A DNA stretch of 64,000 nt, taken from positions 20,354-84,353 of IMG/VR virus record IMGVR_UViG_3300048033_001554; one strand, written 5' to 3'. The notes below the pieces were generated by a model that saw nothing but the letters and a program-made list of their open reading frames with translations, had not been told where the DNA came from and did not search any database. The DNA comes from a virus. Of the stretch, positions 41,657 to 62,150 are shown one piece after another (the stretch's first letter is position 1; each line of letters opens with the position of its first letter). The position numbers and the translations under genes were made by a program.

Positions 41657-41685
41657 ATTATATATCATCTAAAAACGAATGTCAA
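41657..41685 (-). promoter_or_regulatory. Sigma70-like early promoter
   Basis: Perfect TTGACA-17 nt-TATAAT followed by TATCTTATCAAAT. Confidence 0.8.
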
Positions 41686-41694
41686 CAACTTTTT

Positions 41695-42786
41695 TCATTT
41701 TATTTCAAGTTTTTTAGTATGTTTTAAGCTATTTTTCCATCTGCCATTTCTTTTGTTACATGTCTGTGCACAAACTCTGAATGGAACACTACTCCAAGAT
41801 TCTTCTATATGCTTAAACAAACCAGCGTTAAGAATATCTGTGATATCGTGTTTAGTTACATTATTGAATTCTCGGTCTAGTTTTAGCTCAGTGTAAAGCT
41901 TTTTAGAAAGCAATCCTTCTGTATTCTTTAAGACATCACTTTGGACTTCTTGCCCTATCCAACAACAAGGCCACAATTTCTTTTCAGCGGACAAGTAAAC
42001 CATAGCATCTTGATCTGCTTGACATTGAATATCAGCTGTAATATCATAGCTTTCGTCATATGTTTTGGGATATTGCGGTTGAAAATCCCTAACGGTGTCA
42101 TTTCGCCTGTGCTTATAGTTATCTTCGATCGCTGACGCAGGTTCTAAAGAGTATTCTGGTTTGTGCTTCTTATCATATACTATAAGATCCTTGGTGCCCC
42201 ATCTCATAGACACCCTAGATTTAAATTGTTTAAATCCATATTGCTTCGCAAGTTCACGGCATTCTTGTTCTTGGTGCTCATTATGTTTAAAGATGGTCAT
42301 AGCCCAATTCGCCTCTCCACCTGCGTCTATGTAGGCTTTAGCATTTTTCATTACAACACTAAATAACGTATTTCTTCTGTATAAATGATGCGTATCTTCG
42401 AGACCATCTATACCAAATTCTACATTGACGTTATGTTGTTTACCTAACCAAGCCCAAAAATCTGTAGATAAAGCTCCACCATTTGTGTTAATTTTTATAC
42501 GCATACTACGATTTAATAAAACTTCAATTAATCCTTTTGGATTTGAATGTTTAACTATATCTCCAAAATTTCCATTTACTACTACAGTAAAAACATTAGA
42601 AAAATATTCGTGGTCAAGAACCTTTTCTAGCTCTTCTGTAGACCACTCATTTATTTCTAATCCTGGCATTGTTTTAAAAAAAGTATCATAAGTTCTTGGG
42701 CACTGAGGGCATCGAGCATTACATCCGCTAGTAGGCTCTAAGTGTATAGTTCTAATAAGCCTTTTGTATATTCCATAATCAACCAT
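41695..42786 (-). CDS. Radical SAM protein with SPASM/twitch-like C-terminus
   Basis: CNARCPQC; GNFGD; NTNGG; FGIDG; C-terminal IQC..LWPCCW..CAQTC. Confidence 0.88.
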   Translation of the reverse strand: MVDYGIYKRLIRTIHLEPTSGCNARCPQCPRTYDTFFKTMPGLEINEWSTEELEKVLDHEYFSNVFTVVVNGNFGDIVKHSNPKGLIEVLLNRSMRIKINTNGGALSTDFWAWLGKQHNVNVEFGIDGLEDTHHLYRRNTLFSVVMKNAKAYIDAGGEANWAMTIFKHNEHQEQECRELAKQYGFKQFKSRVSMRWGTKDLIVYDKKHKPEYSLEPASAIEDNYKHRRNDTVRDFQPQYPKTYDESYDITADIQCQADQDAMVYLSAEKKLWPCCWIGQEVQSDVLKNTEGLLSKKLYTELKLDREFNNVTKHDITDILNAGLFKHIEESWSSVPFRVCAQTCNKRNGRWKNSLKHTKKLEIK

Positions 42787-42806
42787 TTGTACGCCTATAT
42801 TTGATT

Positions 42807-43706
42807 TTAACCAAAAGCTTCTACTCTATCTATGATATTGTAGTTGCATAAATTTTTTATAATTTTTGTATAGCTCTCGTTTGTATCAATAAACGCAACT
42901 GGAATATTTCCAATAGCATTCTTAGGATCGCCTTTAGTAAAACCCAGAGCAGTAAGATAATTGTTATTTTGATCCCACCAATTATTCATTCCTTCTAAGA
43001 ATTTATTAACGTTGTCTTCTTGCCTATTATGAAAGTAAGCGGTGAAATCTGGGCTATACCATCTTAGTGGACGAATATTATCTTCGCCAACTACGTCGTC
43101 GCCATCTTTAAACACATCATATAAAGGCTTTCCTACTTCACAATAGTTTATATAGACTTCTCCAAATTTTCTTTTTAGAGTGAACAACTCATAATCTGAA
43201 TCTTGTAGATTCAATCTATTTCTGTTATTGAATGTTACAACTATTCTTGGGTAATAACTAGTCTTGCTTTGAAAAGCATTTGCGTAATAATTTTCAGCTC
43301 TATGTATTATTACGTTGTATCTTTCTAAAGCTATTTTTTGAGCATCGTCGCATTCCATAAAAAAGTCAGAAGGTAGCAGAGTGCTACCTCTTAGGTTTTC
43401 AAAATAATGGTGTAAATGATTTAGCTGCTCTTGAGGCATACCAACATATGCTTCATGATGAATTACTTTTTTGTTTTTGTTTATTGTGCTAATACAAGAA
43501 TTTAATTCTTCAACCAGTCTTTCTTCAGTCCATTCACCAGAAGGAAAATTATACATTCTATCCGGTTCTTTTGCAGTATTATCTTTTTCAATTACTTGCT
43601 CTTTTAAACATTGAAACCATCTAATTGCAATGTCGGTATTGTAAACAGTATAGCTTAAGCGATATTCGCCGCCATTGCTGTTCTTAAAAATCACATCAAA
43701 ATACAT
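42807..43706 (-). CDS. Hypothetical protein
   Basis: 299 aa with LNHLHHYFE and YINYCEVGK motifs; AAGGAG SD. Confidence 0.7.
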   Translation of the reverse strand: MYFDVIFKNSNGGEYRLSYTVYNTDIAIRWFQCLKEQVIEKDNTAKEPDRMYNFPSGEWTEERLVEELNSCISTINKNKKVIHHEAYVGMPQEQLNHLHHYFENLRGSTLLPSDFFMECDDAQKIALERYNVIIHRAENYYANAFQSKTSYYPRIVVTFNNRNRLNLQDSDYELFTLKRKFGEVYINYCEVGKPLYDVFKDGDDVVGEDNIRPLRWYSPDFTAYFHNRQEDNVNKFLEGMNNWWDQNNNYLTALGFTKGDPKNAIGNIPVAFIDTNESYTKIIKNLCNYNIIDRVEAFG

Positions 43707-43718
43707 AATATCTCCTTA

Positions 43719-43732
43719 TATAAATATTTATT
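43719..43732. promoter_or_regulatory. Overlapping divergent late promoters
   Basis: TATAAATA (+) at 43719-43726 and AATAAATA (-) at 43725-43732, between divergent genes. Confidence 0.6.
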
Positions 43733-43742
43733 GGAGGAAGAC

Positions 43743-44414
43743 ATGGACAATTTTTTAAAATCAATAGATAGAGAAGAATTCAGAAATTATATAGATAATT
43801 CTGTATTCAAAGCTCAAGCGTGCCAACGAAATTGGGACCTATCTAAATTTGTTAATGAAAAGGATTTAGAGTCTATAATTGGTGCTGGAATGAATTGCCC
43901 ATCAAAACAAAATCAAGATTTTTATAATCTTCACGTGATAACTAATAGAGACATCATACAAAAATTATATGAGAGCTCAATTATACCAAATGGAAGAAGA
44001 AAAAATCCTCAATTATTAGCTAATGCAGTTATTCTATTTGAAAGCAAAGAAGTAGAAACTCCTAGATCTGACGAGCAAAAAAAGCTTGCTCTTGCCAAGA
44101 AGGGAATAATATCTCTTACTCAAAAAGATTTAGATGATTGCGAAAAAATAGTGTATAGAGATACTAATCAAAGTTTAGGAATAGCCGCTGGCTTTATTAA
44201 TATTACCTCAGCTATGCTTGGATATGAAACTGGATTTTGCGCATGTTTTGATGATGAAACTGTAAAATCTTTACTTGATATTCGTGGAAAACCATTGCTA
44301 GCAATAGGAATAGGAATAAAGGATGCAAGTAAAGATAGAACAGAAGATCATATAACTGGCGAACTGATATCTAAATATAAAAAAGGTCCTATAGGACTTA
44401 GTTTGCACAAATAA
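43743..44414 (+). CDS. Nitroreductase-family flavoprotein
   Basis: CQRNWD; CPSKQNQ; SLGIAAG..AMLGYETGFCACFD; IGIG. Confidence 0.85.
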   Translation: MDNFLKSIDREEFRNYIDNSVFKAQACQRNWDLSKFVNEKDLESIIGAGMNCPSKQNQDFYNLHVITNRDIIQKLYESSIIPNGRRKNPQLLANAVILFESKEVETPRSDEQKKLALAKKGIISLTQKDLDDCEKIVYRDTNQSLGIAAGFINITSAMLGYETGFCACFDDETVKSLLDIRGKPLLAIGIGIKDASKDRTEDHITGELISKYKKGPIGLSLHK

Positions 44415-44417
44415 GAT

Positions 44418-44696
44418 CTACTTCTTATTTCTTTGAGCATCCTCTGCTTCGATTACTCCTCTAAGTTCAGCGATGAGTTCTTCTGCAAGCTCAACTTGTC
44501 TTAAAGTAATTCTATGAGGTGTATTAGGAAATAAAAATGGCACAAACGCGTGGATGTATCCAGTGATTGCATTGGCCAAACCAAACGTGCTTAGCTTTAT
44601 TGCAAACCACATATGGGTAAAGTATCCGCTGCGAACTTCCTTCAAATGCTCAGTATTAATCAAATAGCCATATCGGCCTAAGTTGCCAAATTTCAT
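44418..44696 (-). CDS. Small membrane-associated protein (DUF6356-like)
   Basis: HLKEVRSGYFTHMWFA..IHAFVPFLF. Confidence 0.65.
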   Translation of the reverse strand: MKFGNLGRYGYLINTEHLKEVRSGYFTHMWFAIKLSTFGLANAITGYIHAFVPFLFPNTPHRITLRQVELAEELIAELRGVIEAEDAQRNKK

Positions 44697-44697
44697 G

Positions 44698-44910
44698 TTA
44701 AACCTCGTGGTGCTCAAATGTTTCGTGTACTAAGCTAGCTAATTTCTTTGCAGCATTCATAGATGCTTTTTCTAAAGCGAACGGAAAGATAGCATGAATT
44801 GAACTCGTAACAAAAACCGCTAATGACCAAATGACCATGTTAAGTCCAATTTTAATGTGACCAAAATAACCAGTGTTTGCTTTATTTAAATGTGCTACTA
44901 ATGTTGTCAT
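44698..44910 (-). CDS. Small membrane-associated protein (DUF6356-like), paralogue of its neighbour
   Basis: HLNKANTGYFGHIKIG..IHAIFPFAL. Confidence 0.65.
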   Translation of the reverse strand: MTTLVAHLNKANTGYFGHIKIGLNMVIWSLAVFVTSSIHAIFPFALEKASMNAAKKLASLVHETFEHHEV

Positions 44911-44922
44911 ATTTTTCTCCTT

Positions 44923-45600
44923 TTAGTATCCAAAAATTCCTGGAATTAACGTCCTATGGTTTACGTTAACTTTCATGTAGTTAAACCCGTCAGTTAATCC
45001 GTGTTCTATATATAAATCGTAATTAGAGTATCTTTTTATAGATTCTTTAAGGTACTCAGTATCAATCGCAGTCCACATTACTTTGTCTTTACTTGTAATA
45101 TAGGAAAGCTTTTTGTTTTGTATTTCTTCTATATTTGATATATCTATTGCATACTTGCTTTGAAGTATATCGAATATTTTTTGATTAGAAGGATCTATGT
45201 AGGTGAAACATACTTGTTTAGACACGTGACACAATTGCGCTATGCAATATAACATTTCATTTAACTCGTGGTGAGTAAATACACTATTAGCAAATGCAAT
45301 ATCAAATTGGTTTAATTTTGGAAAGTTTTCATTTTTGTTGCCGTGAGGATTGTATGCTTCGTGGTATCTGTTCCAATAAACTACGCCTGCATTTGGATGA
45401 TCTTCAAGCAATTCATTTAATGCGCTTTTACTTATATCTAAGCAAGTATAGTTTTCTTCTAAGATTTTACCTTTTGAATACCACAAAAGGTTTCCTCTGT
45501 TTCCACCAAAGTCAAGAATTTTTTTATCTTCGTAACCATCAACAAATTGATTGAAGATATTAAAGGCGTCAATTCTTTTGAATACAGAATATTTGTTCAT
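44923..45600 (-). CDS. Class I SAM-dependent methyltransferase
   Basis: KILDFGGNRG; YTCLDIS; FDIAFANSVFTH; TAATG coupling to the upstream gene. Confidence 0.8.
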   Translation of the reverse strand: MNKYSVFKRIDAFNIFNQFVDGYEDKKILDFGGNRGNLLWYSKGKILEENYTCLDISKSALNELLEDHPNAGVVYWNRYHEAYNPHGNKNENFPKLNQFDIAFANSVFTHHELNEMLYCIAQLCHVSKQVCFTYIDPSNQKIFDILQSKYAIDISNIEEIQNKKLSYITSKDKVMWTAIDTEYLKESIKRYSNYDLYIEHGLTDGFNYMKVNVNHRTLIPGIFGY

Positions 45601-45845
45601 TAGTATATAGTGGAATTGCCCACTTTGCTCCAATCAATTTCAACTAACCAGTGTGGCTTTTTTCTTTCAATAATCAACAGTAATAAGTATACATCACTTA
45701 TAATCGGAAATGCATAGAATACAAATCTTTCTACAATATTACATCTATTTATTGCCCCACCAATAAGACCGAGTGGATTTTGCATTCTTTCTTTTTCTAA
45801 AATAATAGAACAAACTATAAAACTAACTAATATCAAATACGTCAT
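45600..45845 (-). CDS. Small hydrophobic protein
   Basis: Two hydrophobic stretches; coupled to neighbours on both sides. Confidence 0.55.
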   Translation of the reverse strand: MTYLILVSFIVCSIILEKERMQNPLGLIGGAINRCNIVERFVFYAFPIISDVYLLLLIIERKKPHWLVEIDWSKVGNSTIY

Positions 45846-47365
45846 TCGTCTAGCCCTAAAAACTTATCTACTTTATCATAGTAACTTCTTTTCATATAAT
45901 CATGAGCTCTTTCTTTAATAGCAGGATCTATGAACAGTTCCGTAAACGTCATTTTGCGCAATGTTTCAAAATCAAAACCTAAACATTGATAGAACATCAA
46001 AAAGAATGTAGCAACTTTAATGTCGTCAATAAAATTCTCTTGAAGGTTTTTAACGTACTCAACAGCTTCAACACTCGACCAATCGTCTCTTATCCATCTG
46101 TTTGTTTTTTCGTCTATATAAAAACCATAGTCTTTGTAATTTTTTGAAAGCTCAGATGCGGTGCCAAGCTCTAATGGACTAAAAGAAAATGAATCAAATA
46201 AATGCTTGTGCGCAAACAAATCTTTTGACCATTCGTTTATAGTTTCTTCGTTATCTCCTGGAAGACCAGCAATAAAACTACCATATACACTTAAAGAATC
46301 ATTAAACGCCTCTTTTGATTTTTCTATTGTCTCAAAAATCTTTTCTTTGGGGCAGCTTTTGCCAATTGCTTTTGCTGCTTCATAGTTTAGTGACTCAACT
46401 CCTAGAAACCATGCGCATACATTAATCTTTTTAAGTAGCGGCAATTGCTCTGGGAATCTAGCAACTAAATCAATTCTTATGAATGCTGCAAATTCTAGCT
46501 TTTCTGGCAAAGCTAATTCTTCAATAGCATCGGCAATAGCTTGCAGTTTTACTGTTTGTTCATTGAATGTATCATCTATAATTACATATTTAGTTGTACC
46601 ATACAAATCGTAATTTTGCTTGAGCTCATGTTTGATACGCTCTTTTTCTCGTAAAAAAGAATCATCGCCTTTGCGTTTACCAATTAAAGGGTATGCACAA
46701 AACTTACATTTAAAAATGCATCCACGACCAAACTCGATTCCCATCGCATCCTCTGGATTCCAAAAATCCTCGGGTACATAGTTTATAAATGAATTTCTAA
46801 AATCAAATTGATTTCCTTTTGGATCAAAATCAATTACTTTGCATTTACTGCCATACGCAATATTGTAATTTAATTTTGTTCCGTTTTTTTCATGATTAGT
46901 GATATGCTCAGCCATTGCTTCACCCATACCAACTACATAGTAATCAATGCATTCTTCAACTATTGGTTTACGTTGAGTATCCATCATACCGCCGTATACC
47001 GTTTTTGCACCTTTTGAACGAATATAATCTGTCATAGATTTAATATCTTCATCTTGACTTGGCCAATGCCATAGGATATTCATTCTTGCCCCATCACGGG
47101 TATGTCTTTTAGTATAAACATCGTCGCCTCTTCTCATAAAAAGAGTAGAACTAAAACCAACCCATAATGTGTTTGGCCCCATTAATTTATCAAGCAGTTC
47201 GTTAATTTTGCCTTTTTTAATCCAATGAGTAAAGTTATTTAAAACAAACACACTATATCCAAGGTTGCGCATATGAGATGCGATTTTGTAACCGCCTACT
47301 GCACGCGCAACATTAAAGACAGGATCGCCTCCTTCAGTCATTATAATTATGTCGTATGTTTTCAT
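45842..47365 (-). CDS. Cobalamin-binding radical SAM enzyme (class B methyltransferase-like)
   Basis: N-terminal WVGFSSTL..VYGG..VGMGE domain; IEFGRGCIFKCKFC; IIDDTFN; LGVES; SFIAGLPGD. Confidence 0.88.
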   Translation of the reverse strand: MKTYDIIIMTEGGDPVFNVARAVGGYKIASHMRNLGYSVFVLNNFTHWIKKGKINELLDKLMGPNTLWVGFSSTLFMRRGDDVYTKRHTRDGARMNILWHWPSQDEDIKSMTDYIRSKGAKTVYGGMMDTQRKPIVEECIDYYVVGMGEAMAEHITNHEKNGTKLNYNIAYGSKCKVIDFDPKGNQFDFRNSFINYVPEDFWNPEDAMGIEFGRGCIFKCKFCAYPLIGKRKGDDSFLREKERIKHELKQNYDLYGTTKYVIIDDTFNEQTVKLQAIADAIEELALPEKLEFAAFIRIDLVARFPEQLPLLKKINVCAWFLGVESLNYEAAKAIGKSCPKEKIFETIEKSKEAFNDSLSVYGSFIAGLPGDNEETINEWSKDLFAHKHLFDSFSFSPLELGTASELSKNYKDYGFYIDEKTNRWIRDDWSSVEAVEYVKNLQENFIDDIKVATFFLMFYQCLGFDFETLRKMTFTELFIDPAIKERAHDYMKRSYYDKVDKFLGLDE

Positions 47366-47366
47366 A

Positions 47367-48131
47367 TTAACCTTTTCTAGGATTGTTGAAATCTACTGGC
47401 GTTCCGTCTCTTCCGGTATAAAAGAAGCATCCATTTTTTTCTATTACTTTGTCTTTAGTATTGTACCAATCTTCGTACACACATGAATCACCACTCACCC
47501 ACAAAATATTCCTATCCATAATCTTTACCCAACAATTGAAAATATTACCAACGATGGTTGAGTTTGGTGGAGTAAAAGATTTTACTTTATCCACTTCTTC
47601 TTTAGTATTAAATACGTGCATAATTGCATTTACACCAACTTCAGTCATTCCCCATATGCAAATCACCTTAGCGCCTCTTTCAATAAAAGCATCAATGATA
47701 TCATATGTGACTGGCTCGGATCCAACCATAAATGTTTTGCCACTCAAATTAAGATCCTTGAAGCCTTTAGTCATCATTACGCCTTTAGCTTGTTTAGGAG
47801 TCAAGTGTGTATGAGTATATTTATCAACTGCTCTTACATACTGGTAAGGGCTGAAAGGCTCAATCGTTAGTTTAGCACCCGCAATCAAAGCTGGTATAGA
47901 CTGTGCAAATAAACCACCGGCTCTTTCAAGGCTTAAACACGTATATACTGAACTGTCTTTAGTTATTTCTTGTACCTTTATAGCATTTAAAGCATCAGCT
48001 TTTATTTTTGCGGGAGGTTGATACACTTCTTTTGGGATACCAGAAGAACCAGAGGTTTTAATTGTGATACCTTTATCTATTACATCAAGTAAATATTTGT
48101 GCTGGCTATCGTTCAAAGTAGTTGAACCCAA
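47367..48131 (-). CDS. Truncated AMP-binding (ANL adenylation) domain protein
   Basis: TSGSSGIPK (A3); VGSEP; WGMTE (A5); YNTKD (A7); YTGR (A8); the C-terminal subdomain is missing. Confidence 0.78.
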   Translation of the reverse strand: MGSTTLNDSQHKYLLDVIDKGITIKTSGSSGIPKEVYQPPAKIKADALNAIKVQEITKDSSVYTCLSLERAGGLFAQSIPALIAGAKLTIEPFSPYQYVRAVDKYTHTHLTPKQAKGVMMTKGFKDLNLSGKTFMVGSEPVTYDIIDAFIERGAKVICIWGMTEVGVNAIMHVFNTKEEVDKVKSFTPPNSTIVGNIFNCWVKIMDRNILWVSGDSCVYEDWYNTKDKVIEKNGCFFYTGRDGTPVDFNNPRKG

Positions 48132-49236
48132 ACTCTCGGTCTACGTAACGTAAGACATGATGGCCCATAAAGCGTTCAGTGATTGTCTTAAACATTTCAT
48201 CGTTTTGGTCTGCAACATATCTTTTAAGTACATTAGTTTCTTCTAGGTTATTAGAAGCTCTATGTGTTGCCCACATCCAAAAATCGTTTTCGTAAATAGA
48301 ACCACCGTGGTAGATTAAATTGATTAAATCTTCAACTGCTCGATAGTTTAATATGCAAAGTTCATTTGCTTCATCTTGGGTAATCTCACCACGAATATAT
48401 TGGGAATGTATTTGAGCATTCTTAACTGTCATATACAAAGAGTTGGCACTCATTGGTTCAAAGAATACGGCACGATTACCACTCTTTAATATTTTTCCAT
48501 CTATTGTCTTCTTACAATAATACGGTTTTAAACTAAATGTTCGGAAGTCTTTAATGTCTTTTTCGGTAGCATTTGTAATACGAATAAGTTCTTGTTCGGC
48601 TTCTAGTCTTGTAGCAAATGCGTCATTATATAAAAGCCCGTGAGACGTGCGATGCTGTAATGGAATCACAAACATCCACCCATACTTATGAGCAACGTGG
48701 CGAGTAAAGCCAAAGTCAGACGGTTCAGGATCATCATAAACAAGAGCAGAATTTAGAATTAAATCACATTCTTTGTAATCGGTAAAATCAGTTGGTCTAC
48801 CACGGCAATCAATTACGTAGTCATATTCTTCTAAGTCTTCGTATTCTACGTTTGCATTTAATAGTTTATAATTTGGATATAACTTCTTTAATCTTTCCAA
48901 CCCCATTTTTGCAAAGTCACGAGCATCAAAATGAACAGCATGATAACCTGATTGGAATGGAAATATAATATCATCTTTACGCCAATCAATATAGTGTGTA
49001 CCATATTTTGTAGTACTATTTAATTCTTTAGATTCAGTAGCAAATATGAAATCAAATGCTTGACCAATCGCAAAGGTAACTTCTGATGTCGTGCTTTCAC
49101 CAACACCAAGGATTGGAATGTTTGGATCAAAAATATGAGTAACTTCGCAATCAATACCACGATTTTTAAAATCTCTTAGAATACATCCGGTAGTTAGTAT
49201 GCCAGCGCTTCCTGCACCTAATATTGCAATTTTCAT
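48106..49236 (-). CDS. Tryptophan-halogenase-family flavoprotein
   Basis: GAGSAG; GVGESTT; STTKYG (catalytic Lys position); IDCRG; GWMFVIP; FFEPMSA. Confidence 0.82.
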   Translation of the reverse strand: MKIAILGAGSAGILTTGCILRDFKNRGIDCEVTHIFDPNIPILGVGESTTSEVTFAIGQAFDFIFATESKELNSTTKYGTHYIDWRKDDIIFPFQSGYHAVHFDARDFAKMGLERLKKLYPNYKLLNANVEYEDLEEYDYVIDCRGRPTDFTDYKECDLILNSALVYDDPEPSDFGFTRHVAHKYGWMFVIPLQHRTSHGLLYNDAFATRLEAEQELIRITNATEKDIKDFRTFSLKPYYCKKTIDGKILKSGNRAVFFEPMSANSLYMTVKNAQIHSQYIRGEITQDEANELCILNYRAVEDLINLIYHGGSIYENDFWMWATHRASNNLEETNVLKRYVADQNDEMFKTITERFMGHHVLRYVDREFGFNYFER

Positions 49237-49748
49237 TCTTCACCTCTTGCTTCTAAATACTTTTTATTATTTAATTTCCATATGTTTTGATTAACACCAA
49301 ACACTTCTTCGTTACTTACATGCTCAACAAGCCCATTCTTTTCAAGTATATAATATAGCTTATTTAATCTTAACATACTTCCGCTTGCATCATTATCAGT
49401 ATTTGTTGTGATATAGATTGGTTCTCCATTAGCCAGATCAATAACTATTGGAAGGTGATAATAAAACATCCAACAATTCATGTGATTGCGGCTTAACCCG
49501 CCAGGCCTAGAATATAATTGAGCACCTCGATATAAAGCTCTATACCCGTCTTTAAATCCATGAAGACCGCTTATCCCAACAATTTTATCGTCTACATATG
49601 TGGCAAACCAAATACCACGATTTTCTATAGTTTCCTCAAACCTCATAGCTTCAAGTGAGTTGTTATTTTTAAACCCAAGTTTATCACACTCGTTAATAAA
49701 TTCTATCAACGCAGGTGAAGTGCCAAATAGAAGACTAGTTTCAATCAT
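49233..49748 (-). CDS. GNAT-like protein
   Basis: WFATYVDDKIVGISGLH..YRALYRGA; IYITTN. Confidence 0.5.
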   Translation of the reverse strand: MIETSLLFGTSPALIEFINECDKLGFKNNNSLEAMRFEETIENRGIWFATYVDDKIVGISGLHGFKDGYRALYRGAQLYSRPGGLSRNHMNCWMFYYHLPIVIDLANGEPIYITTNTDNDASGSMLRLNKLYYILEKNGLVEHVSNEEVFGVNQNIWKLNNKKYLEARGEE

Positions 49749-50992
49749 GAGAATTTAAACTCTAAGTCCTTATAAACTGTCGTACTGCCGAACATTGCTG
49801 GTAATAATTCTGGTTCTTTTGTCATTTCGAAGGTATCAAATCGATCTAGCATTTCGTTAATAATGATTTCAAGAAAATGCTTTACGAGAAAATCGCCAGT
49901 ACAATGGTGAGGACCATAAGCAAGAGTAACTGGTAACGGTTCATCATCACGCTCTAATTTAAATTCGTGTGGATCTTTAAAATACTTAGGATCTCTATTA
50001 GCACCATACGTATATAATAGAACACGTCCGTTTTGATCAAACTTATATCCGTGGTAATCTATTGTTTCAGTAATGTCACGAATGCCACCTTTAAGAGGTG
50101 CAAGCCTCATAGACTCTCGTGCAAATTTAGGAACTAAAGATCTATCAGCTTTTACTCTCTTCACAATTTCCGGATACTTACAAAAATTCATACAAAGGTT
50201 TTGATACATACTTAATGCAAAGGTTGGAATAACTACTGTCCATAGTGATTGGATAAACATATATCCCATTAGCTTTGGGTTGTCGTTATATTCTGTTTGT
50301 TTATCATTTAAGTTATACGCCATGTTTACCATGGTGTCTTTATCTCGACCTTCAAGCATATAGTACTCTAATGACTCACCTACGATCCGAGCAAACATAT
50401 GGTAGAATTCTGTAGTTTCAGCTACTGGCTTATCATAGTCAAAGTCAGGATTAAAATTAGAGAATACGTTCCCAGGTCTCATCCATTCATGAAAGCCATC
50501 TTTAACATAATCTTCGGTAACATCTAATTCTGAGAATGGAAACTCTATTGTTTGAATTTGAGTATCAGTTACAATACGACCAATGTAATCATATGATTTA
50601 AATGATTTGCCTTTTGGTATTCTATCTAAATGATTTGTTAAGTTGTTTTTAAAGATTTCGGTAAAATCACCTGCCCGGCGTTTGATCCAATCTAAACTAT
50701 GCTTTTTTGCTAAATGATGGTGAGGACCTTCACGCAATGTTAATGCGTAACCGGCACGCCAAATTCCACCGAGCGGCGTAGGATCAAAAGGTGCAGGAGA
50801 TGTTTTTGCAAGGCTAAATGTTTCATTCATCTTGGAAGCTTCTTTGAGCTTATCCATAGAAAAAATAATCCAATGCCTATAAACAGGGTGCCAGAAAAAA
50901 CCACGTTCTTCATTTTCAAATAAGAACTGAGTGTGCTCTTCCATTTTATACAAGAAATCTGGATTTACAATATCAAAATCAATTTTACGCAT
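49745..50992 (-). CDS. Cytochrome P450
   Basis: K-helix ESMR (ExxR); ANRDPKYFKDPHEFKLER meander; heme ligand loop AYGPHHCTG; EGPHHH in the C-helix region. Confidence 0.9.
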   Translation of the reverse strand: MRKIDFDIVNPDFLYKMEEHTQFLFENEERGFFWHPVYRHWIIFSMDKLKEASKMNETFSLAKTSPAPFDPTPLGGIWRAGYALTLREGPHHHLAKKHSLDWIKRRAGDFTEIFKNNLTNHLDRIPKGKSFKSYDYIGRIVTDTQIQTIEFPFSELDVTEDYVKDGFHEWMRPGNVFSNFNPDFDYDKPVAETTEFYHMFARIVGESLEYYMLEGRDKDTMVNMAYNLNDKQTEYNDNPKLMGYMFIQSLWTVVIPTFALSMYQNLCMNFCKYPEIVKRVKADRSLVPKFARESMRLAPLKGGIRDITETIDYHGYKFDQNGRVLLYTYGANRDPKYFKDPHEFKLERDDEPLPVTLAYGPHHCTGDFLVKHFLEIIINEMLDRFDTFEMTKEPELLPAMFGSTTVYKDLEFKFS

Positions 50993-51011
50993 TATATAAA
51001 GTCCGTGTTAA

Positions 51012-51314
51012 TTAAAGATCAGCGGTTTCCGGTGTAAATGTGATAGACCATCCTTCAGATCGCAACTGAGCTTTAACACCCTCAGAAACATCTGCCATCA
51101 TTATTTGGTATTCTTCAACTGCGGCATCATTCCATTCAGTTACAACTGTATGCGTATTGCCGTCACTGCTTATTACCGTACTCCTATTTCCGTTTTCTAG
51201 ACAAACATCTAAATAATATGTTACTTCTAACGGCAATAGAGATGATATGTATTGCAATGCTTCTCGAGCGGTGAGCTCTGTGCTTGGTGTGAAAACAACT
51301 TGTTGTGATATCAT
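51012..51314 (-). CDS. Hypothetical acidic protein (100 aa), first gene of the P450 operon
   Basis: GAGGA SD; GATAAATA late-promoter variant at 51340-51347. Confidence 0.65.
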   Translation of the reverse strand: MISQQVVFTPSTELTAREALQYISSLLPLEVTYYLDVCLENGNRSTVISSDGNTHTVVTEWNDAAVEEYQIMMADVSEGVKAQLRSEGWSITFTPETADL

Positions 51315-51338
51315 AGTAATCCTCGTCTATTAATACTT

Positions 51339-52013
51339 CTATTTATCTAGTTTTCCTATAATAGTAAACCTTTTAACGTCTTCTTCAAAGCGATGATCTA
51401 TTTCATCCGAATAAATTATATCAAACATTGGATGCATTTGGTCTTCAAATTCTTCTAAAGTATCTACAGTATTAATGTGATCTTTTAATCCATGCATATT
51501 ATTTGATTGAAAAATAAAAGTTGGGTTGTTTTTAAAATCATATTTTTTCCAGCCAGGCCAATGTTTCATAGGAGGCATATGTTCGCAAGAAGTGTTTATT
51601 ACTACATCACAATTATTAAAATGCCATAGCCTATTTAACCATACATCTGCTTCAAAAAATTCAGGCCTTTTTATCTCTTTGAATAGTTCATTTGCTAATT
51701 CTATAGCATATTTGTCCATATCCCAGCCATAAACTTTGCGAGCATCTCTACTAAGTAAAAGAGGAACAAGTATAGATCCAAACCAGCAACCCATTATTCC
51801 ATAAGTTTGATCTGGCTTTGTTAGCTCGTATTCGTCCATTAATTCAATTAAATGTTTTTTAGAATCACATTGATTTAAAGAAAACGAATCAACAAGTTCT
51901 TTAGATTTACCCCAAATGTTTTTGCGTGCATCAATTTCTATAATGCTTATAACTCTTCTAAAAAGCTTTCTAGAGTATTCATCGTTTAATAAAAACTCAC
52001 TATTAATCATCAA
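51339..52013 (-). CDS. Class I SAM-dependent methyltransferase-like protein
   Basis: WGKSKEL; IMGCWFG; YGWDMD; INTSCEHM; FQSNN. Confidence 0.75.
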   Translation of the reverse strand: MMINSEFLLNDEYSRKLFRRVISIIEIDARKNIWGKSKELVDSFSLNQCDSKKHLIELMDEYELTKPDQTYGIMGCWFGSILVPLLLSRDARKVYGWDMDKYAIELANELFKEIKRPEFFEADVWLNRLWHFNNCDVVINTSCEHMPPMKHWPGWKKYDFKNNPTFIFQSNNMHGLKDHINTVDTLEEFEDQMHPMFDIIYSDEIDHRFEEDVKRFTIIGKLDK

Positions 52014-52734
52014 AAGACTCCCAGTATTCTATAGCCCAATTAGTATTAGAGTCATGTATGTCGTCACCTTCACCGTGCGAATTATTAAAAAGGCATACTT
52101 TGTAGTCAGGCCTATACTTACCTTTTTCCATATCTTCTGGCCAAGAGGCTCCACCGTTAAATGAATAAACTAGTTTTTTGTCATTATGGAATTGTATTAT
52201 TGATAGGAATCTATAGAATAGCGTTTTATCTAAAGATCTATATTTTAAAGAGTAATAATTATAGTTACTATTGAATAGCTTATCACTAAGATCTTCGGTG
52301 GATTGTTTGTTACCAATCACAAAAGAGCTATTTACATCGCATGTAATTTTACCGTAATTTCTTTTGATGTTATCTTGGTCTGCCCATTCGTTCCTAATGA
52401 AGTATGGCTTATCTTCTAACTCTACGCTATCTACGTAAGAAGTAATGTCACTTAAAATAAGAATATCTAAATCTAAAAGGAGTGTTTTTGTTTTAAAGTA
52501 ATTGAGTAGTTTAATTTTTTCTGCAGTAAAAACTTTGCCGCCCCATTGACCTTCGGCAACCTCAAATTCTTTTAAATCAAGAATGTTTATTTCTGGCTTA
52601 ATTCCAAATTGATTGTCTGTTGCGCAATAAAAGGTAAACGGATTGTCATAGAACTTTGCACACATATTGTATAATCTATTAACGTATTCGGGTCCATACT
52701 TATCACCCCATTTTAAACATACTATATTTAGCAT
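52003..52734 (-). CDS. GT-A glycosyltransferase-like protein
   Basis: VCLKWGDKYGPEYVNRL; FYCATD; LLLDLDILI; VNSS. Confidence 0.72.
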   Translation of the reverse strand: MLNIVCLKWGDKYGPEYVNRLYNMCAKFYDNPFTFYCATDNQFGIKPEINILDLKEFEVAEGQWGGKVFTAEKIKLLNYFKTKTLLLDLDILILSDITSYVDSVELEDKPYFIRNEWADQDNIKRNYGKITCDVNSSFVIGNKQSTEDLSDKLFNSNYNYYSLKYRSLDKTLFYRFLSIIQFHNDKKLVYSFNGGASWPEDMEKGKYRPDYKVCLFNNSHGEGDDIHDSNTNWAIEYWESFDD

Positions 52735-52771
52735 AATATACCTTTTCGCTGTAACATAATGTATTATATCA

Positions 52772-52803
52772 TATTTATATGTGATCGTAAACACTTATAA
52801 ATA
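52772..52803. promoter_or_regulatory. Divergent late promoters
   Basis: TATAAATA (-) at 52772-52779 and (+) at 52796-52803. Confidence 0.75.
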
Positions 52804-52820
52804 TTATAGGAGGATATATC

Positions 52821-53402
52821 ATGCTTAGAGTTATTGCAGTTAGAACCGGAAACAAATACGATCAATGGTACGAAGACAATTTAAAACACATGATAGATAC
52901 TTATTCTGGTTTAAAATATGACGAGTTCGTTGTAATACGTGAAGATTTATATGACGATGAAAGAGGCGTATTTAACAAATTGCAAATGTTTGATAGATTC
53001 AAAGATGGTCAAAACATTTACTTTGATTTAGATATGATTATTAAAGGTGATTGTAACCATTTATTAAGAAAAGAATTTACTCTTTGCCATGCTCATTGGA
53101 GAGAACCAGATCATACTCCTCTTAATTCGTCTATAGTATCTTGGGAAGGTGATGTGTCTTATATAACTAACGTATTCCACAAAGATCACGAGTATGCTTT
53201 TACAAAATATTACCGCGGAATAGATCAATACATATATGAAAACGTAGCTTATAAGACTTATTCAGAAGATGATGGATACGTATCATTTCAAACAATAACT
53301 GAAGAAACAAAAGCTCCTGTATACTTGTTTAATCAAAGATACGAAGAATTAGTTAAAGAAGATTGGTACACTAAGTATCAAATACCAACCCAAAGTTCTT
53401 AG
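52821..53402 (+). CDS. GT-A glycosyltransferase-like protein
   Basis: VRTGNKY; FNKLQMF; IYFDLDMII; LNSSIVSW; GIDQY. Confidence 0.72.
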   Translation: MLRVIAVRTGNKYDQWYEDNLKHMIDTYSGLKYDEFVVIREDLYDDERGVFNKLQMFDRFKDGQNIYFDLDMIIKGDCNHLLRKEFTLCHAHWREPDHTPLNSSIVSWEGDVSYITNVFHKDHEYAFTKYYRGIDQYIYENVAYKTYSEDDGYVSFQTITEETKAPVYLFNQRYEELVKEDWYTKYQIPTQSS

Positions 53403-55068
53403 AAATAAAATGAACTAATACGACATTATCTTTTGCGCATTCGGCTTTAAATTTATCCAAGGCTCTTCCATGATCTGGTGTTCCTTTTTCTAAAGCTTTA
53501 ACTCTACCCAAAAAATCTTGATAGTGCCAACATTCTGGTATATTAATAAAAGGAGCGTTTCCTTTTTTTAATTTAAATGAAAATATAGTTTCATTATCGT
53601 ATCCGAAAGCTTTTCTCACATTTTCATGATACAAAGAGTACTCGTCTTCTTTTAGCTCTTTCATTTGTGTTATTACATCTTCTATATCAGAAAAGTAATC
53701 TAATTTTTCCATACCATATCTAGAAGCACAAACAACTCCAGTATTGAAAACGTTGTTGTCACCATTTAGTCCATTTTCAACTAGCAAAGCATGAGTATTC
53801 CAGTACTTAGATCGTTGATTTCTAAAATCGTAATCGTATACTTTAAAGTACAAGTTTAAATTTTTAGCTGGTATCATCAAATCTTTTTTAGTTGCGTATT
53901 TGCAACATATAGCATAGTCTAAAGGAAAATAATCAAATATATTATATTGTTGTCTAAAGTAGACATCTAAATCTACGTAGGCTACATGGTCGTACTCATG
54001 TGTTAGTTCATCTAGTAAATATATTTTATATAGGTTTACTACGTCATACTCAGATAAATCTGGAAACCTGGCTTTAAAAGATTCGTACTTATCATCTCTT
54101 CCGTAATGCTTATATGTTGCGCCAATATTACCAGCATATTTGTTATGATTAGAAATTAGATTATCATAGTACTTAATGAGTTGTTGTTTTACCATTAAGC
54201 TTTTTGGTATTTTCGAATCATTATAATTTTTTGGATTATCTAATCTATCGTCTGGTATTTCAATATGAATGCTAAATATACATTGAGTTTTATCTTTAAA
54301 AAACGCATTAAACTGTTTATTGATAAAGTGCAAACAATGCCCTTTAATATCTTTGGGTTTTTCATTTAATATATTGTGCCACTCATCTTTTAATATAACG
54401 TATGGAATATTATATTTCTCTATGATATAAGAGAATATGCTTTCGTTATTAGGATAATATTGTTTTTCAATGATTGCGGTTTTTGCATTTTTAAGATCAT
54501 TGATTTTATTAATAGCTTCTTTAGAATTTTCTATAAAGTTTAGTTGTTTGATATGTTTGCTTGACCCGATAATAACGCCAGTATTAATTACGTTATTATC
54601 TTTACCATCTAATAAATCTTTTGTTATGTGGTATTTTAATGTAGGATTTCTAAGACCCAAGTAACCAAATAGCATAGAATGCTTTTCTTTGGAATATATT
54701 TCATCATTTGTATCTTTAAAGTGAATGCCTTTACTAATGTCATGTTCGGTAAACACGTTTAAATTTGTATTAAATACTACATCCATATCAACGTACATAA
54801 CTTCATCGTACTTATCAGATAGGTCTAGCATTAAATGATGCTTATGCAAATTAGTTCTTGTAAATTCGAGTTCTTTATCTAATTTAAAATCATTCATTGT
54901 ATTACGATACAGCACAAAGTCTACGCCGATAGAGTCAGCGTAGTCTTTTTTGTTTTGAACTAATCTGTCGAAATATTCTTCAACTAATAATTGCTTAGCT
55001 TGCGACTCATGTGGTAAGTCATCATTATGCAAATCATCGTATGAAGTAAAAATAACACGTTTTATCAT
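53371..55068 (-). CDS. Tandem two-domain GT-A glycosyltransferase-like protein
   Basis: Duplicated YD.V.YVD.DV.F, NTGV, NE(S/T)IFS, WH and HFI.K.F motifs. Confidence 0.78.
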   Translation of the reverse strand: MIKRVIFTSYDDLHNDDLPHESQAKQLLVEEYFDRLVQNKKDYADSIGVDFVLYRNTMNDFKLDKELEFTRTNLHKHHLMLDLSDKYDEVMYVDMDVVFNTNLNVFTEHDISKGIHFKDTNDEIYSKEKHSMLFGYLGLRNPTLKYHITKDLLDGKDNNVINTGVIIGSSKHIKQLNFIENSKEAINKINDLKNAKTAIIEKQYYPNNESIFSYIIEKYNIPYVILKDEWHNILNEKPKDIKGHCLHFINKQFNAFFKDKTQCIFSIHIEIPDDRLDNPKNYNDSKIPKSLMVKQQLIKYYDNLISNHNKYAGNIGATYKHYGRDDKYESFKARFPDLSEYDVVNLYKIYLLDELTHEYDHVAYVDLDVYFRQQYNIFDYFPLDYAICCKYATKKDLMIPAKNLNLYFKVYDYDFRNQRSKYWNTHALLVENGLNGDNNVFNTGVVCASRYGMEKLDYFSDIEDVITQMKELKEDEYSLYHENVRKAFGYDNETIFSFKLKKGNAPFINIPECWHYQDFLGRVKALEKGTPDHGRALDKFKAECAKDNVVLVHFISKNFGLVFDT

Positions 55069-55085
55069 AATATACTTTATTTAGT

Positions 55086-55574
55086 TTATAACATAGTATC
55101 GTAAATAGCAATAGCTTTCATAAGTGTTGGTGCTTTTCTAAGTGCTCTTTTAACATCAGCATCTGCAGTTTTCATTGCTTCCGACTCAAACGCCCAAATT
55201 TTAAATTTAAAGATTTCATCTTTATCTTCGTTTAGTTCTAAAAAGTCTTCCCACAAAATAGATCCTGATGAATTTGAATTGCTTGCTGAGCTAAAGTCTT
55301 CACCAAACTTTTCCTCTAGCATTATTTTCGCTGCGTTTTCTATTTCAATGTTATAAGCCAAAGACTGGGCTTGTTTAAATTCTACCGTGGCATCAAGAAT
55401 CTTTTCAGAATCCCAACCTTCAGCAACTAATGCTTTGTAATCCTCATCGTCAGGATTAGCCTCAAGATTATATACAGCTAAATTACCAGCTGAGTCTTCA
55501 TAACGTATTTTAACAATGCTGTACTCTTCATTCACGTATACAGCATCTACTATTTTTCCACTAAATTCTGCCAT
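55086..55574 (-). CDS. Hypothetical acidic protein
   Basis: AGGAG SD; directly downstream of the fibre-like gene. Confidence 0.7.
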   Translation of the reverse strand: MAEFSGKIVDAVYVNEEYSIVKIRYEDSAGNLAVYNLEANPDDEDYKALVAEGWDSEKILDATVEFKQAQSLAYNIEIENAAKIMLEEKFGEDFSSASNSNSSGSILWEDFLELNEDKDEIFKFKIWAFESEAMKTADADVKRALRKAPTLMKAIAIYDTML

Positions 55575-55586
55575 TATATTCTCCTA

Positions 55587-58356: not shown

Positions 58357-58432
58357 TGGCTCCTCGTGCTGGGCTCGAACCAGCGACAACCTGATTAACA
58401 GTCAGATGCTCTACCAACTGAGCTAACGAGGA
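58357..58432 (-). tRNA. tRNA-Asn(GTT)
   Basis: 76-nt cloverleaf: acceptor TCCTCGT/ACGAGGA, anticodon loop CTGTTAA, T-loop TTCGAGC, encoded CCA. Confidence 0.96.
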
Positions 58433-61670: not shown

Positions 61671-62150
61671 TTATTTTTTCTCATTTGCCTCAGCGATGAC
61701 CATTTTTTCATATTCTGCTTGGTCTACCACGCCTTCAGCAAGTAATCTTTGGCGATTTACCTCATGCTGAGCCTGAGTATCTTCTTTAGATCCACCGAAG
61801 TATGGTACGCAGTGGCCTTCTTCAATCATAATCTCAGTTACTAGACGGCCATTTGCTGCTCTGAAATCACCAAGGATACGGCCAAATTTGCCTTTCATGT
61901 CTTCGCCAGACTTATCTTCAGTGGTAATGAGTTTAGCATCTTTTTCTAGCAAAGAGTAAAGACGCTCTTTAGCGGCTAATCCAAATAGCTTTTCAACTCT
62001 ATCGGACGTACGAGATTCTGGAGTATCAATACCCATAATACGTACACGCTCGTCTTTCAAGCAGATACCGAAACCAAGATCAATATCTACATCTACTGTG
62101 TCGCCGTCGACTACTTTAACAACGGTTACGTCATATTCGTTTGTATTCAT
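61671..62150 (-). CDS. Thermonuclease (SNase-like)
   Basis: KVVDGDTVDV; RVRIMGIDTPES; GKFGRILG. Confidence 0.9.
   Translation of the reverse strand: MNTNEYDVTVVKVVDGDTVDVDIDLGFGICLKDERVRIMGIDTPESRTSDRVEKLFGLAAKERLYSLLEKDAKLITTEDKSGEDMKGKFGRILGDFRAANGRLVTEIMIEEGHCVPYFGGSKEDTQAQHEVNRQRLLAEGVVDQAEYEKMVIAEANEKK

Follow-up and report, generated by a model that had tools for sequence, protein, structure and literature searches.

A co-linear enzyme operon in an uncultured marine phage

What does a phage make with a set of natural-product tailoring enzymes, when no enzyme that builds a natural-product scaffold is found beside them? This question is raised by a run of genes on the IMG/VR virus record IMGVR_UViG_3300048033_001554 (84,353 bases, estimated completeness 39%), of which we analysed positions 20,354-84,353, a stretch of 64,000 nt that is called the window here and whose own numbering is used throughout. 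Ten minus-strand genes follow one another there from 51314 down to 44418, and the coordinates of their open reading frames (ORFs) give junctions that are overlaps of 4-34 nt or gaps of 1-19 nt. An initial annotation, made from the letters of the window, had taken these genes for a tailoring module that works without a nonribosomal peptide synthetase (NRPS) or a polyketide synthase (PKS), and the coordinates and spacing that it gave were confirmed. We find that the block is a conserved operon whose anchors are a truncated adenylating enzyme and a predicted acyltransferase, and we tentatively propose that it makes, activates and attaches a tailored acid.

In the direction of transcription, the block opens with orf100 (51012-51314), an accessory protein with a small predicted ferredoxin-like, DABB/ABM-like fold, followed by a cytochrome P450 (49745-50992; Pfam p450, E 2.6e-11), by orf171 (49233-49748), which AlphaFold2 and Foldseek together point to as a GNAT-fold acyltransferase, and by a halogenase-like protein of 376 aa (48106-49236; Pfam Trp_halogenase, E 4.4e-28). 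Then come a truncated adenylating enzyme that we call mini-ANL (47367-48131; Pfam AMP-binding, E 6.6e-13), a class-B-like (cobalamin-type) radical S-adenosylmethionine (SAM) enzyme of 507 aa (45842-47365; Pfam Radical_SAM, E 6.6e-17), the small hydrophobic orf81 (45600-45845; no family match in Pfam or PHROG), the SAM-dependent methyltransferase MT1 (44923-45633; Pfam Methyltransf_12, E 1.1e-7) and two overlapping DUF6356 paralogues (44698-44910 and 44418-44717; PF19883, E 4.3e-10 and 4.2e-7). The enzyme types named in the initial annotation were thereby borne out by Pfam or by fold search. So was the absence of an NRPS, a PKS or a carrier protein, since no carrier, condensation or ketosynthase domain was among the Pfam matches for the 20 ORFs scanned between 39110 and 55068. 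Matches to NCBIfam all fell far under the curated cut-offs, which means that no enzyme of the block belongs to a named equivalog.

Scanning 2.9 million viral contigs with the 507-aa radical SAM enzyme returned 19 distinct loci at 64-88% identity, referred to as family A, whose gene content was established by tblastn of 26 window proteins. Many of these loci being near-duplicates, they were also collapsed into a set of 10 variants, that is, the window and 9 representatives. One order is common to all 19 loci: orf100 where present, P450, orf171, the halogenase-like gene where present, mini-ANL, the radical SAM gene, MT1, DUF6356b and DUF6356a. Other genes of the region are carried by part of the variants, with the methyltransferase MT2 in 7 of the 10 and the orf193/263, orf565 and orf162 families in 5 of the 10. 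Nine genes of the window were further compared with those of three relatives (L002, L004 and L007), giving 0.04-0.45 nonsynonymous differences per site (pN) and 0.57-0.87 synonymous ones (pS), values at which synonymous sites are saturated; a low pN at saturated pS indicates that all nine genes are under purifying selection. The block is a conserved, selected and co-linear phage operon, and its arrangement goes far beyond chance. Random assortment of the homologues in other viral contigs, which the initial annotation had set against the existence of a cluster, was not seen and is contradicted by an order that is kept in 19 of 19 loci, and the multi-enzyme tailoring module that it had described stands as a co-linear and selected unit.

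The phage carries T4-type baseplate genes, but its relation to cultured T4-like phages is only distant, with no more than 28% identity in the baseplate wedge protein. Megablast of 44400-52100 against GenBank phages gave no match. Close homologues are present on contigs of 209-223 kb (P0005, P0007, P0136 and P0141). A P450 and a halogenase-like enzyme stand within a selected operon together with a cobalamin-type radical SAM enzyme and a truncated adenylating enzyme, in seawater metagenomes of 11 studies: the stretch, or part of it, is present in 20 runs from these seawater or marine studies (one run may be its source), and there are no RNA runs among the listed sequencing runs that hold it.

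A truncated adenylating enzyme and a GNAT-fold protein as anchors

ANL enzymes share core motifs, namely a phosphate-binding loop and a nucleotide/ribose-binding Asp, and carry their catalytic lysine on a mobile C-terminal domain of about 120 aa. The mini-ANL of the window covers positions 170-348 of the 384 positions of the Pfam AMP-binding profile and aligns with residues 148-302 of a 491-aa CoA ligase in the PDB; it is predicted to be an adenylate-forming enzyme without the first ~145 residues and without the entire C-terminal domain. All 18 aligned members of this family terminate at the GR hinge; across these diverse proteins G28, G31, K34, E164, T225, D227 and R241 do not vary, and the nucleotide-binding residues are kept. 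A profile search of 1.84 billion representatives gave 951 matches at E <= 0.001 and 21 clusters at E <= 1e-30, of which the best are short proteins of 225-345 aa with the same end point, full-length ANL enzymes appearing from about E 1e-20 onward. The gene is present in 10 of 10 variants and in 19 of 19 loci.

Activation and attachment by ANL enzymes without an NRPS is familiar, from general knowledge, in stand-alone amide synthetases and in the DltA-dependent D-alanylation of envelope polymers. With these the mini-ANL has in common the central core with its phosphate-binding loop and ribose-binding Asp, as well as an association with an acyltransferase and very small hydrophobic proteins. It differs from them by the missing C-terminal domain and first ~145 residues and by the absence of a carrier protein, and the partner proposed for it has a GNAT fold, being neither an MBOAT protein nor a condensation domain.

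That proposed partner, orf171, has no Pfam match. Its AlphaFold2 model has a predicted local distance difference test score (pLDDT) of 85.8 and gave 153 Foldseek matches at E <= 0.001, the best at 1.2e-5 (HP0935), with template modelling (TM) scores of 0.44-0.63; all rows listed are acetyltransferases or GNAT proteins, and one Atlas cluster carries the name N-acetyltransferase. We predict from this model that orf171 is a GNAT-fold acyltransferase. A complex prediction for mini-ANL and this protein, made from family alignments, scored 0.00 and gave neither support nor a verdict. It was found in 10 of 10 variants and 19 of 19 loci, and a scan of viral contigs with a GNAT profile led back to the same family-A contigs plus one fragment.

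The same two genes recur in a sister family of 39 further IMG/VR contigs (L072-L110), which were collected with the mini-ANL P0276, 38% identical. The mini-ANL is present in all 39 by construction; a GNAT gene lies upstream on the same strand in 30 of them, at 28-41% identity to orf171, and a homologue of the B12-type radical SAM gene is found in 21. A DUF6356b-like ORF follows the GNAT gene in 9 of the 39, a P450 is found in none and a halogenase-like gene in one, by a weak match. Sister loci carry instead a class IV aminotransferase (30 of 39; PF01063, E 1e-33 to 1e-37 in the three that were scanned) and an IMPDH/GMP-reductase-like gene (34 of 39), both of them missing from the window and from all 19 loci of family A. 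Their order, as at L082:1444-9256 and L108:6351-8663, is GNAT, a small DUF6356-like ORF, the class IV aminotransferase, further genes, a methyltransferase, the B12-type radical SAM gene, the IMPDH/GMP-reductase-like gene and mini-ANL. The borders are shared as well: after mini-ANL, two sister contigs (L104 and L105) continue with homologues of the window genes g41252 to g39822 at 41-78% identity, and a third, L075, repeats the window's layout with orf655, orf162, orf263, MT2, orf565, GNAT, further genes, mini-ANL and a nitroreductase. Taken together, these counts and shared borders indicate that GNAT and mini-ANL, along with the class-B-like radical SAM enzyme where it is present, are anchors, and that tailoring genes are exchanged at one locus.

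An isolated P450 family and a halogenase-like flavoprotein

To our knowledge P450s are hardly known in phages, and tblastn of the operon's P450 against 50,697 GenBank phages gave no match. A heme-thiolate Cys loop and an ExxR sequence are P450 motifs, and stretches of both the Cys-ligand and the ExxR type are present in the translation, in which the Pfam match spans residues 286-392. In the PDB, 266 P450 sequences were matched at E <= 0.001, the best being P450tol (E 8.4e-21), followed by CYP153-type hydroxylases. Its close family consists of 46 clusters at 68-90% identity, and the next matches are at most 32% identical, mostly over one third of the protein; the P450 thus appears to belong to an isolated viral family. 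The gene was found in 10 of 10 variants and in 18 of 19 loci, the remaining locus, L003, beginning inside orf171. One phage P450, that of Mycobacterium phage Adler, is named in the accessible portion of PMC9405906.

The halogenase-like protein matches phrog_2928 (E 1.3e-60), and in the PDB it matches halogenases from E 1.4e-12 and VirX1 at E 7.5e-9. Five stretches, GAGSAG, GVGEST, the Lys of STTKYG, WMFVIP and FFEPMSANS, are invariant in 11 sequences. The GxGxxG flavin motif is kept (as GAGSAG), and the Lys of STTKYG aligns with the Lys-bearing stretch of solved halogenases; WxWxIP reads WMFVIP, with the second Trp replaced, and the stretch aligned to the Fx.Px.Sx.G tunnel motif reads FFEPMSANS. 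In those sections of PMC8407142 that we cite, the tunnel motif is reported in all active flavin-dependent halogenases and WxWxIP is missing from some active ones. The protein may be a flavoprotein that carries out halogenation or hydroxylation, two activities that its sequence does not tell apart. Its gene is present in 8 of 10 variants and 15 of 19 loci; it is absent from L015, L018, L019 and L020, in which the GNAT gene abuts mini-ANL.

Halogenase-like genes as such are not new in phages. VirX1 of cyanophage Syn10 (PDB 6QGM), described in PMC8407142 as the first virus halogenase to be characterised, its natural substrate being not known, and the "tryptophan halogenase" genes of cultured cyanomyophages have their Pfam and PHROG family in common with the window protein, which resembles VirX1 in keeping GxGxxG and the aligned lysine. 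It differs from VirX1 in length (376 aa against 531 aa) and in its WMFVIP and FFEPMSANS variants, and is a putative halogenase. Among cultured phages, 49 GenBank records hold a halogenase homologue, at no more than 32% identity to the window protein; that of S-SSM7 stands alone among unrelated genes, whereas the window's stands inside a cassette.

The radical SAM enzyme, its oxygenase partners and the small membrane-like proteins

In the class-B-like radical SAM enzyme, the cysteines C216, C220 and C223 of the CxxxCxxC motif are invariant in 23 sequences. Its best NCBIfam matches are B12-dependent radical SAM enzymes (the PhpK family at 3.1e-19, a ladderane-lipid enzyme and HpnJ), all under cut-off and aligning from about residue 105. 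The "B12" label of the initial annotation therefore holds in part: the B12-binding domain PF02310 is recorded for several homologues of 30-35% identity and for a homologue in Enhygromyxa, while on the window protein PF02310 has no match at E <= 0.01 and B12 families match under cut-off only. All 346 homologues are unnamed or generically named, one PDB match was found (E 1.5e-6), and tblastn against the 50,697 GenBank phages gave no match. The gene is in 10 of 10 variants.

Relatives of the window carry two extra oxygenase genes between the radical SAM gene and MT1, one for a cupin of ~192 aa of the Asp/Asn-hydroxylase family (PF05118; 8 of 10 variants) and one for a cupin-like protein of ~168 aa. 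In several lineages a cupin-like domain of ~168-170 aa (HxD...H) is fused to the C-terminus of the radical SAM enzyme, giving products of 673-691 aa (L007:9998-12049, and also L005, L006, L008-L013, L016 and L017), and it is a separate gene in L002, L004 and L018. This fusion links the radical SAM enzyme to an oxygenase, and PF05118 cupins also adjoin distant radical SAM homologues. Both cupins are absent from the window's entire 84-kb record, where orf81 alone occupies the site at which relatives carry the two cupin genes and a small hydrophobic ORF; the window lineage has lost both. An assembly error does not explain the cupin-free junction, because it is bridged from the radical SAM gene through orf81 to MT1 by contigs of 4 marine runs from 4 studies (X3 record 11, 43318-47387; X5 record 20, 44849-48691; X8 record 26, 42143-46018; X2 record 3, 44836-46320), which are ~96-97% identical as judged from the listed differences. 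Homologues of orf81 itself are found only in L002 and L003, and ORFs of 62-90 aa lie at the same position in L009, L010, L013 and L016.

MT1 is present in 17 of 19 loci, the other two (L008 and L020) being cut by contig ends, and in 9 of 10 variants, the missing one being likewise cut. DUF6356a is found in 14 of 19 loci and 8 of 10 variants, and DUF6356b in 13 of 19 loci and 7 of 10 variants. Each DUF6356 paralogue has two His within a hydrophobic segment, kept in all relatives; this pair and orf81 are the sole hydrophobic, membrane-like products of the cassette, and a metal- or heme-binding role at a membrane is conceivable for them.

No bacterial copy of the cassette was found: scanning genome contigs with the radical SAM alignment returned 23 loci at 25-32% identity, mostly on short contigs of metagenome-assembled genomes (MAGs), and none with a P450, a halogenase or a mini-ANL. 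On short MAG-binned contigs, radical SAM homologues of 30% identity are accompanied by PF05118 cupins, by an orf171-like gene, or by genes similar to orf299 and MT2. Among cultured bacteria, radical SAM homologues were seen only in two strains of Enhygromyxa salina (L034 and L035, 29% identity); at L034:9707-16837 the gene stands beside a DUF3050/heme-oxygenase-like gene and two asparagine-synthase-family genes, a separate and uncharacterised bacterial cluster.

A folded accessory protein at the head of the operon

The initial annotation had put forward the 100-aa product of orf100 as a possible substrate of the pathway. All 54 homologue clusters of orf100 are about 100 aa long, and residues G88, F93, P95, T97, D99 and L100 at the C-terminal end are invariant in 45 sequences. 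The source names of orf100 and radical SAM homologues do not go beyond "hypothetical" or a generic radical SAM label. The AlphaFold2 model (pLDDT 94.3, tail included) is a compact ferredoxin-like domain of the order beta-alpha-alpha-beta-beta-alpha-alpha-beta. Foldseek against the PDB gave no match at E <= 0.001, and VIA-wide Z scores were 6.9 for 2od6, 6.2 for SnoaB, 6.0 for IsdG and 5.5 for ActVA-Orf6, in a range that the tool calls common; orf100 is predicted to resemble ABM/DABB proteins at fold level only. It stands beside the P450 in 9 of 19 loci, and is present in 6 of 10 variants and, by profile search, in 1 of 5 whole relative records. With its compact fold and this patchy occurrence the substrate role loses its footing, and orf100 as precursor peptide or carrier was rejected as the principal explanation, the gene being absent from 4 of 10 variants and 4 of 5 whole records. 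A leader with a modifiable core, as in the precursor of a ribosomally synthesised and post-translationally modified peptide (RiPP), was not found in orf100, the sole candidate. Core-gene gaps of at most 24 nt, the length of the gap between orf100 and MT2 (51339-52013), leave no space for a hidden precursor gene, and no RiPP recognition element (RRE) or PqqD-like domain was matched by Pfam in the 20 ORFs, a scan that a divergent RRE could escape.

A hypervariable island at a fixed locus

The cassette is a swappable part of a hypervariable enzyme island that occupies a fixed locus in uncultured marine T4-like phages. In the window this island lies at 41.7-57.6 kb; its right border is fixed and its content varies among relatives. 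Its upstream part (52003-57554, mixed strands) holds orf263, orf193 on the plus strand, orf565, orf162 and orf655, in a layout that recurs in L002, L004 and L075. The genes orf263 and orf193 are paralogues, and orf193 has a weak PHROG match to a glycosyltransferase (E 0.0012). At E <= 1, Pfam gave nothing for orf263, orf193, orf565 and orf162, and a chance-level match for orf655. Over its N-terminal half, orf655 shares 35% identity with Mosig_00097 of the cultured pelagimyophage Mosig. VrlC precedes that gene by two genes, and the island around it also holds an epimerase, a nitroreductase, a methyltransferase, a carbamoyltransferase, a MoaA-like radical SAM enzyme and an aminotransferase.

Pelagimyophages and cyanomyophages have been described to carry a large non-syntenic island, the host recognition cluster (HRC), with fibre-type genes and glycosyltransferases between VrlC and gp14 (Zaragoza-Solas et al. 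2020, PMC7029224, main text). The island of the window is similar in its fixed border and swapped enzyme cassettes, and in that its orf655 has a homologue just after VrlC in Mosig, beside a methyltransferase, a nitroreductase, a MoaA-like radical SAM enzyme and an aminotransferase. It differs in location, as it lies not between VrlC and gp14 but between DNA-metabolism genes and a tRNA/ligase region. A hypervariable island with radical SAM cassettes has already been published there; the main text of that paper does not contain the words P450, halogenase or oxygenase, and the cassette is not described in it (PMC7029224). No literature describing this cassette was found in a search that excluded supplementary gene tables and most subscription journals. 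What is already known is hence the hypervariable island with radical SAM cassettes, and what is undescribed is the core of mini-ANL and GNAT.

At the edge of the window, an ORF at 3-5105 (minus strand, 1701 aa, open at the window edge; DUF4815, E 2.6e-44) probably encodes a VrlC-type baseplate protein and stands beside the baseplate wedge gene; the VrlC-like and baseplate genes together occupy 0-19 kb.

What the cassette may make

The initial annotation had named three alternatives for the cluster, namely a small molecule, the maturation of a peptide, and the decoration of virion proteins or glycans. Among readings of this kind we tentatively favour an activate-and-attach function, and regard it as a serious possibility that falls somewhat short of an even chance: a tailored acid would be made, activated and attached to an acceptor without a carrier protein. 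The cassette's product would be a custom-made carboxylic acid whose probable precursor is an aromatic or an amino or keto acid, the latter two being suggested by the aminotransferase of the sister cassette. The radical SAM enzyme would C-methylate this acid, the P450 (and, in relatives, the cupin hydroxylases) would oxidise it, the flavoprotein might halogenate or hydroxylate it, and MT1 would add a methyl group. Activation as an acyl-adenylate by the mini-ANL would follow, and the GNAT-fold enzyme would move the acyl group to an acceptor without carrier protein, NRPS or PKS. The most likely acceptor would be a glycan or a protein belonging to the virion or to the surface of the infected cell, and a role at the membrane would fall to orf81 and to the two small, hydrophobic DUF6356 proteins with their His residues. 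A surface acceptor is favoured because the cassette travels with the orf655/orf162/orf565 module, which is possibly glycosyltransferase- or fibre-like; because in Mosig the homologue of orf655 comes shortly after VrlC, where sugar-type and tailoring enzymes form an island; and because cassette swapping at a fixed site resembles the host-recognition islands of marine myophages as the main text of PMC7029224 presents them. A bolder form of the proposal, unlikely in our judgement, is a novel machine in which the GNAT takes the acyl-adenylate of a C-terminal-domain-less ANL directly, in place of an acyl-CoA, and tags the surface of the infected cell, a glycan or a virion fibre with it; swapping of the tailoring genes between the anchors would diversify the tag in an arms race over host recognition or exclusion.

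Several observations weigh against attachment. The closest structural matches of orf171 are acetyl-CoA-dependent N-acetyltransferases, and it may simply acetylate. The mini-ANL, whose activity is putative, lacks the C-terminal domain on which catalysis depends in canonical ANL enzymes, and in the window the halogenase-like gene stands between it and the GNAT gene. The island is ~36 kb from the VrlC and baseplate genes, with replication and DNA-modification genes between, orf655 has no fibre annotation, and the glycosyltransferase identity of the neighbours is weak, with one PHROG hit, that of orf193, and no Pfam hit. Product and acceptor are both putative, and the DABB-like orf100, the halogenase family with its free-substrate type and the P450tol/CYP153-like P450 suit a free small molecule equally well.

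Such a free molecule is the main rival, and we consider it rather unlikely. It would be a metabolite such as an aromatic or amino-acid derivative that has been halogenated, methylated or oxidised; it would act as a toxin, a signal or a compound against competitors and be released at lysis, unattached, with the GNAT serving N-acylation or self-protection and mini-ANL forming an amide or ester. Solved members of the tryptophan-halogenase family act on free substrates, the best solved matches of the P450 are P450tol and then CYP153-type hydroxylases, the class IV aminotransferase of the sister cassettes belongs to small-molecule metabolism, and, in the manner typical of biosynthetic clusters, variable tailoring genes surround a conserved core. 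The fold of orf100 is also like that of small ABM/DABB natural-product enzymes (Z 5-6.9), but this similarity is at fold level only; moreover, no scaffold-forming enzyme (NRPS, PKS, terpene or cyclodipeptide synthase) was found in the Pfam-scanned ORFs, no transporter was recognised, and surface decoration is the better fit for a cassette that is exchanged at a fixed locus, next to a module that is fibre-like or possibly of glycosyltransferases. Modification of a peptide or protein, in which radical SAM enzymes, P450, flavoprotein, cupins and methyltransferases would act on the C-terminus of orf100 or on residues of virion or host proteins, seems improbable to us. Its enzyme types match RiPP sets, with weak NCBIfam matches to SPASM maturases, RiPP radical SAM methyltransferases, the RiPP P450 ApyO and QhpG, relatives have PF05118 Asp/Asn hydroxylases, and the C-terminal end of orf100 is invariant in 45 of 45 sequences; but those family matches are all far under the curated cut-offs, the confident compact fold and patchy occurrence of orf100 and the lack of room for a precursor gene stand against it, as do the absence of an RRE/PqqD-like Pfam match and the start of the core of the SPASM-like radical SAM enzyme at residue 17, and small substrates are suggested by two enzymes of the sister cassettes, the aminotransferase and the IMPDH-like one. 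From general knowledge, proteusin/polytheonamide gene sets bring together similar enzyme classes (B12-dependent radical SAM C-methyltransferases, iron/2-oxoglutarate-dependent hydroxylases, methyltransferases and P450s), to which the family matches are weak; the window differs from them in that no leader/core precursor or RRE was found and all family matches are under cut-off.

Very improbable, finally, is a role in nucleotide or DNA modification that would extend the hydroxymethylcytosine (hmC)-type hypermodification locus at ~30-38 kb, or a chance gathering of unrelated auxiliary genes in a plastic region. A block with PHROG alpha-glucosyltransferase and DNA methyltransferase matches lies ~4 kb away, and relatives have QueC-like PP-loop genes, but in relatives the cassette travels with the orf655/orf565 module and not with DNA-modification genes, and no DNA-binding or base-flipping domain was found in the Pfam-scanned ORFs. 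As to unrelated genes, the island is indeed hypervariable, but against them stand the strict co-occurrence of the genes and their fixed order, their overlapping frames, and purifying selection that holds while synonymous divergence is saturated.

If the cassette decorates virions or host surfaces, host recognition in abundant marine phages would gain a chemical layer, and the radical SAM cassettes seen earlier in their hypervariable islands would be accounted for; a free metabolite would mean a natural-product pathway of a lytic phage. Under either reading, mini-ANL and GNAT form a compact two-gene unit that is directly testable at the bench.

Flanking genes and promoters

The genes that flank the block had been taken as parts of the cluster in the initial annotation, which did not survive comparison with relatives, where the nitroreductase, orf299, the SPASM-like radical SAM gene and MT2 are shuffled or missing; in L004 the cassette stops at DUF6356a and a g41252 homologue follows directly. 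MT2 (minus strand) is a probable methyltransferase by a match under cut-off (Methyltransf_25, E 0.0014); it lies at the joint with the upstream module and, in the variants that have it, usually adjoins orf565. The product of orf299 (42807-43706, minus strand) has no match in Pfam, NCBIfam, PHROG or the ESM Atlas; a 62%-identical homologue lies beside or upstream of the P450 gene in L009, and homologues at 27-41% lie near radical SAM or mini-ANL genes in L032, L080 and L107, so that orf299 is an accessory travelling with these cassettes. The SPASM-like radical SAM gene (41695-42786, minus strand; Pfam Radical_SAM, E 5.6e-8) is a variable accessory present in 6 of 10 variants at positions that differ among loci; its NCBIfam matches to SPASM maturases are weak and far under cut-off, and the SPASM label that it had been given holds for its 31%-identical relatives, which PF13186 matches, and not for the window protein, on which there is no match. 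The nitroreductase-family gene (43731-44414, plus strand; PF00881, E 9.7e-9), another variable accessory, has a homologue in family A in L013 only and in 4 of 39 sister loci. Its suggested role as flavin reductase of the halogenase is weakened by the presence of nitroreductase-family genes in halogenase-free islands, in these 4 sister loci and in phage Mosig.

In two family-A relatives (L018:1349-7478 and L013:2799-6319), up to three more radical SAM genes (one of SPASM type), a GDSL-like gene and QueC-like PP-loop genes lie ahead of the cassette. CheckV completeness for these relatives, 23% for 91 kb and 12% for 50 kb, suggests that they have jumbo genomes, far larger than the genome of the phage in the window.

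Late-type promoters, which the initial annotation had noted nearby, come down to a single exact T4-late-type TATAAATA upstream of the minus-strand unit (52772-52779, minus strand), a consensus match only, and one exact match before the nitroreductase gene (43719-43726, plus strand); the motif occurs 14 times in the window against 10.2 expected and is not enriched. The upstream match lies within the first codons of the longest orf263 frame, ahead of an internal ATG. It stands back to back with another TATAAATA (52796-52803, plus strand) between the divergent paralogues orf263 and orf193, in what looks like a divergent late-promoter pair. A sigma70-like promoter with 12 of 12 positions matching (41657-41685, minus strand) marks the border to the conserved genes from g41252 onward. 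Over 41-58 kb, sigma70 matches numbered 68 against 78.3 in shuffles and terminators 11 against 7.9, neither above the shuffles.

Just past the island lies the window's sole tRNA gene, tRNA-Asn (GTT; 58357-58432, minus strand), and further on a staphylococcal-nuclease-like ORF (61671-62150, minus strand; PF00565, E 8e-11) is found near an ATP-dependent DNA ligase gene (60015-61145).

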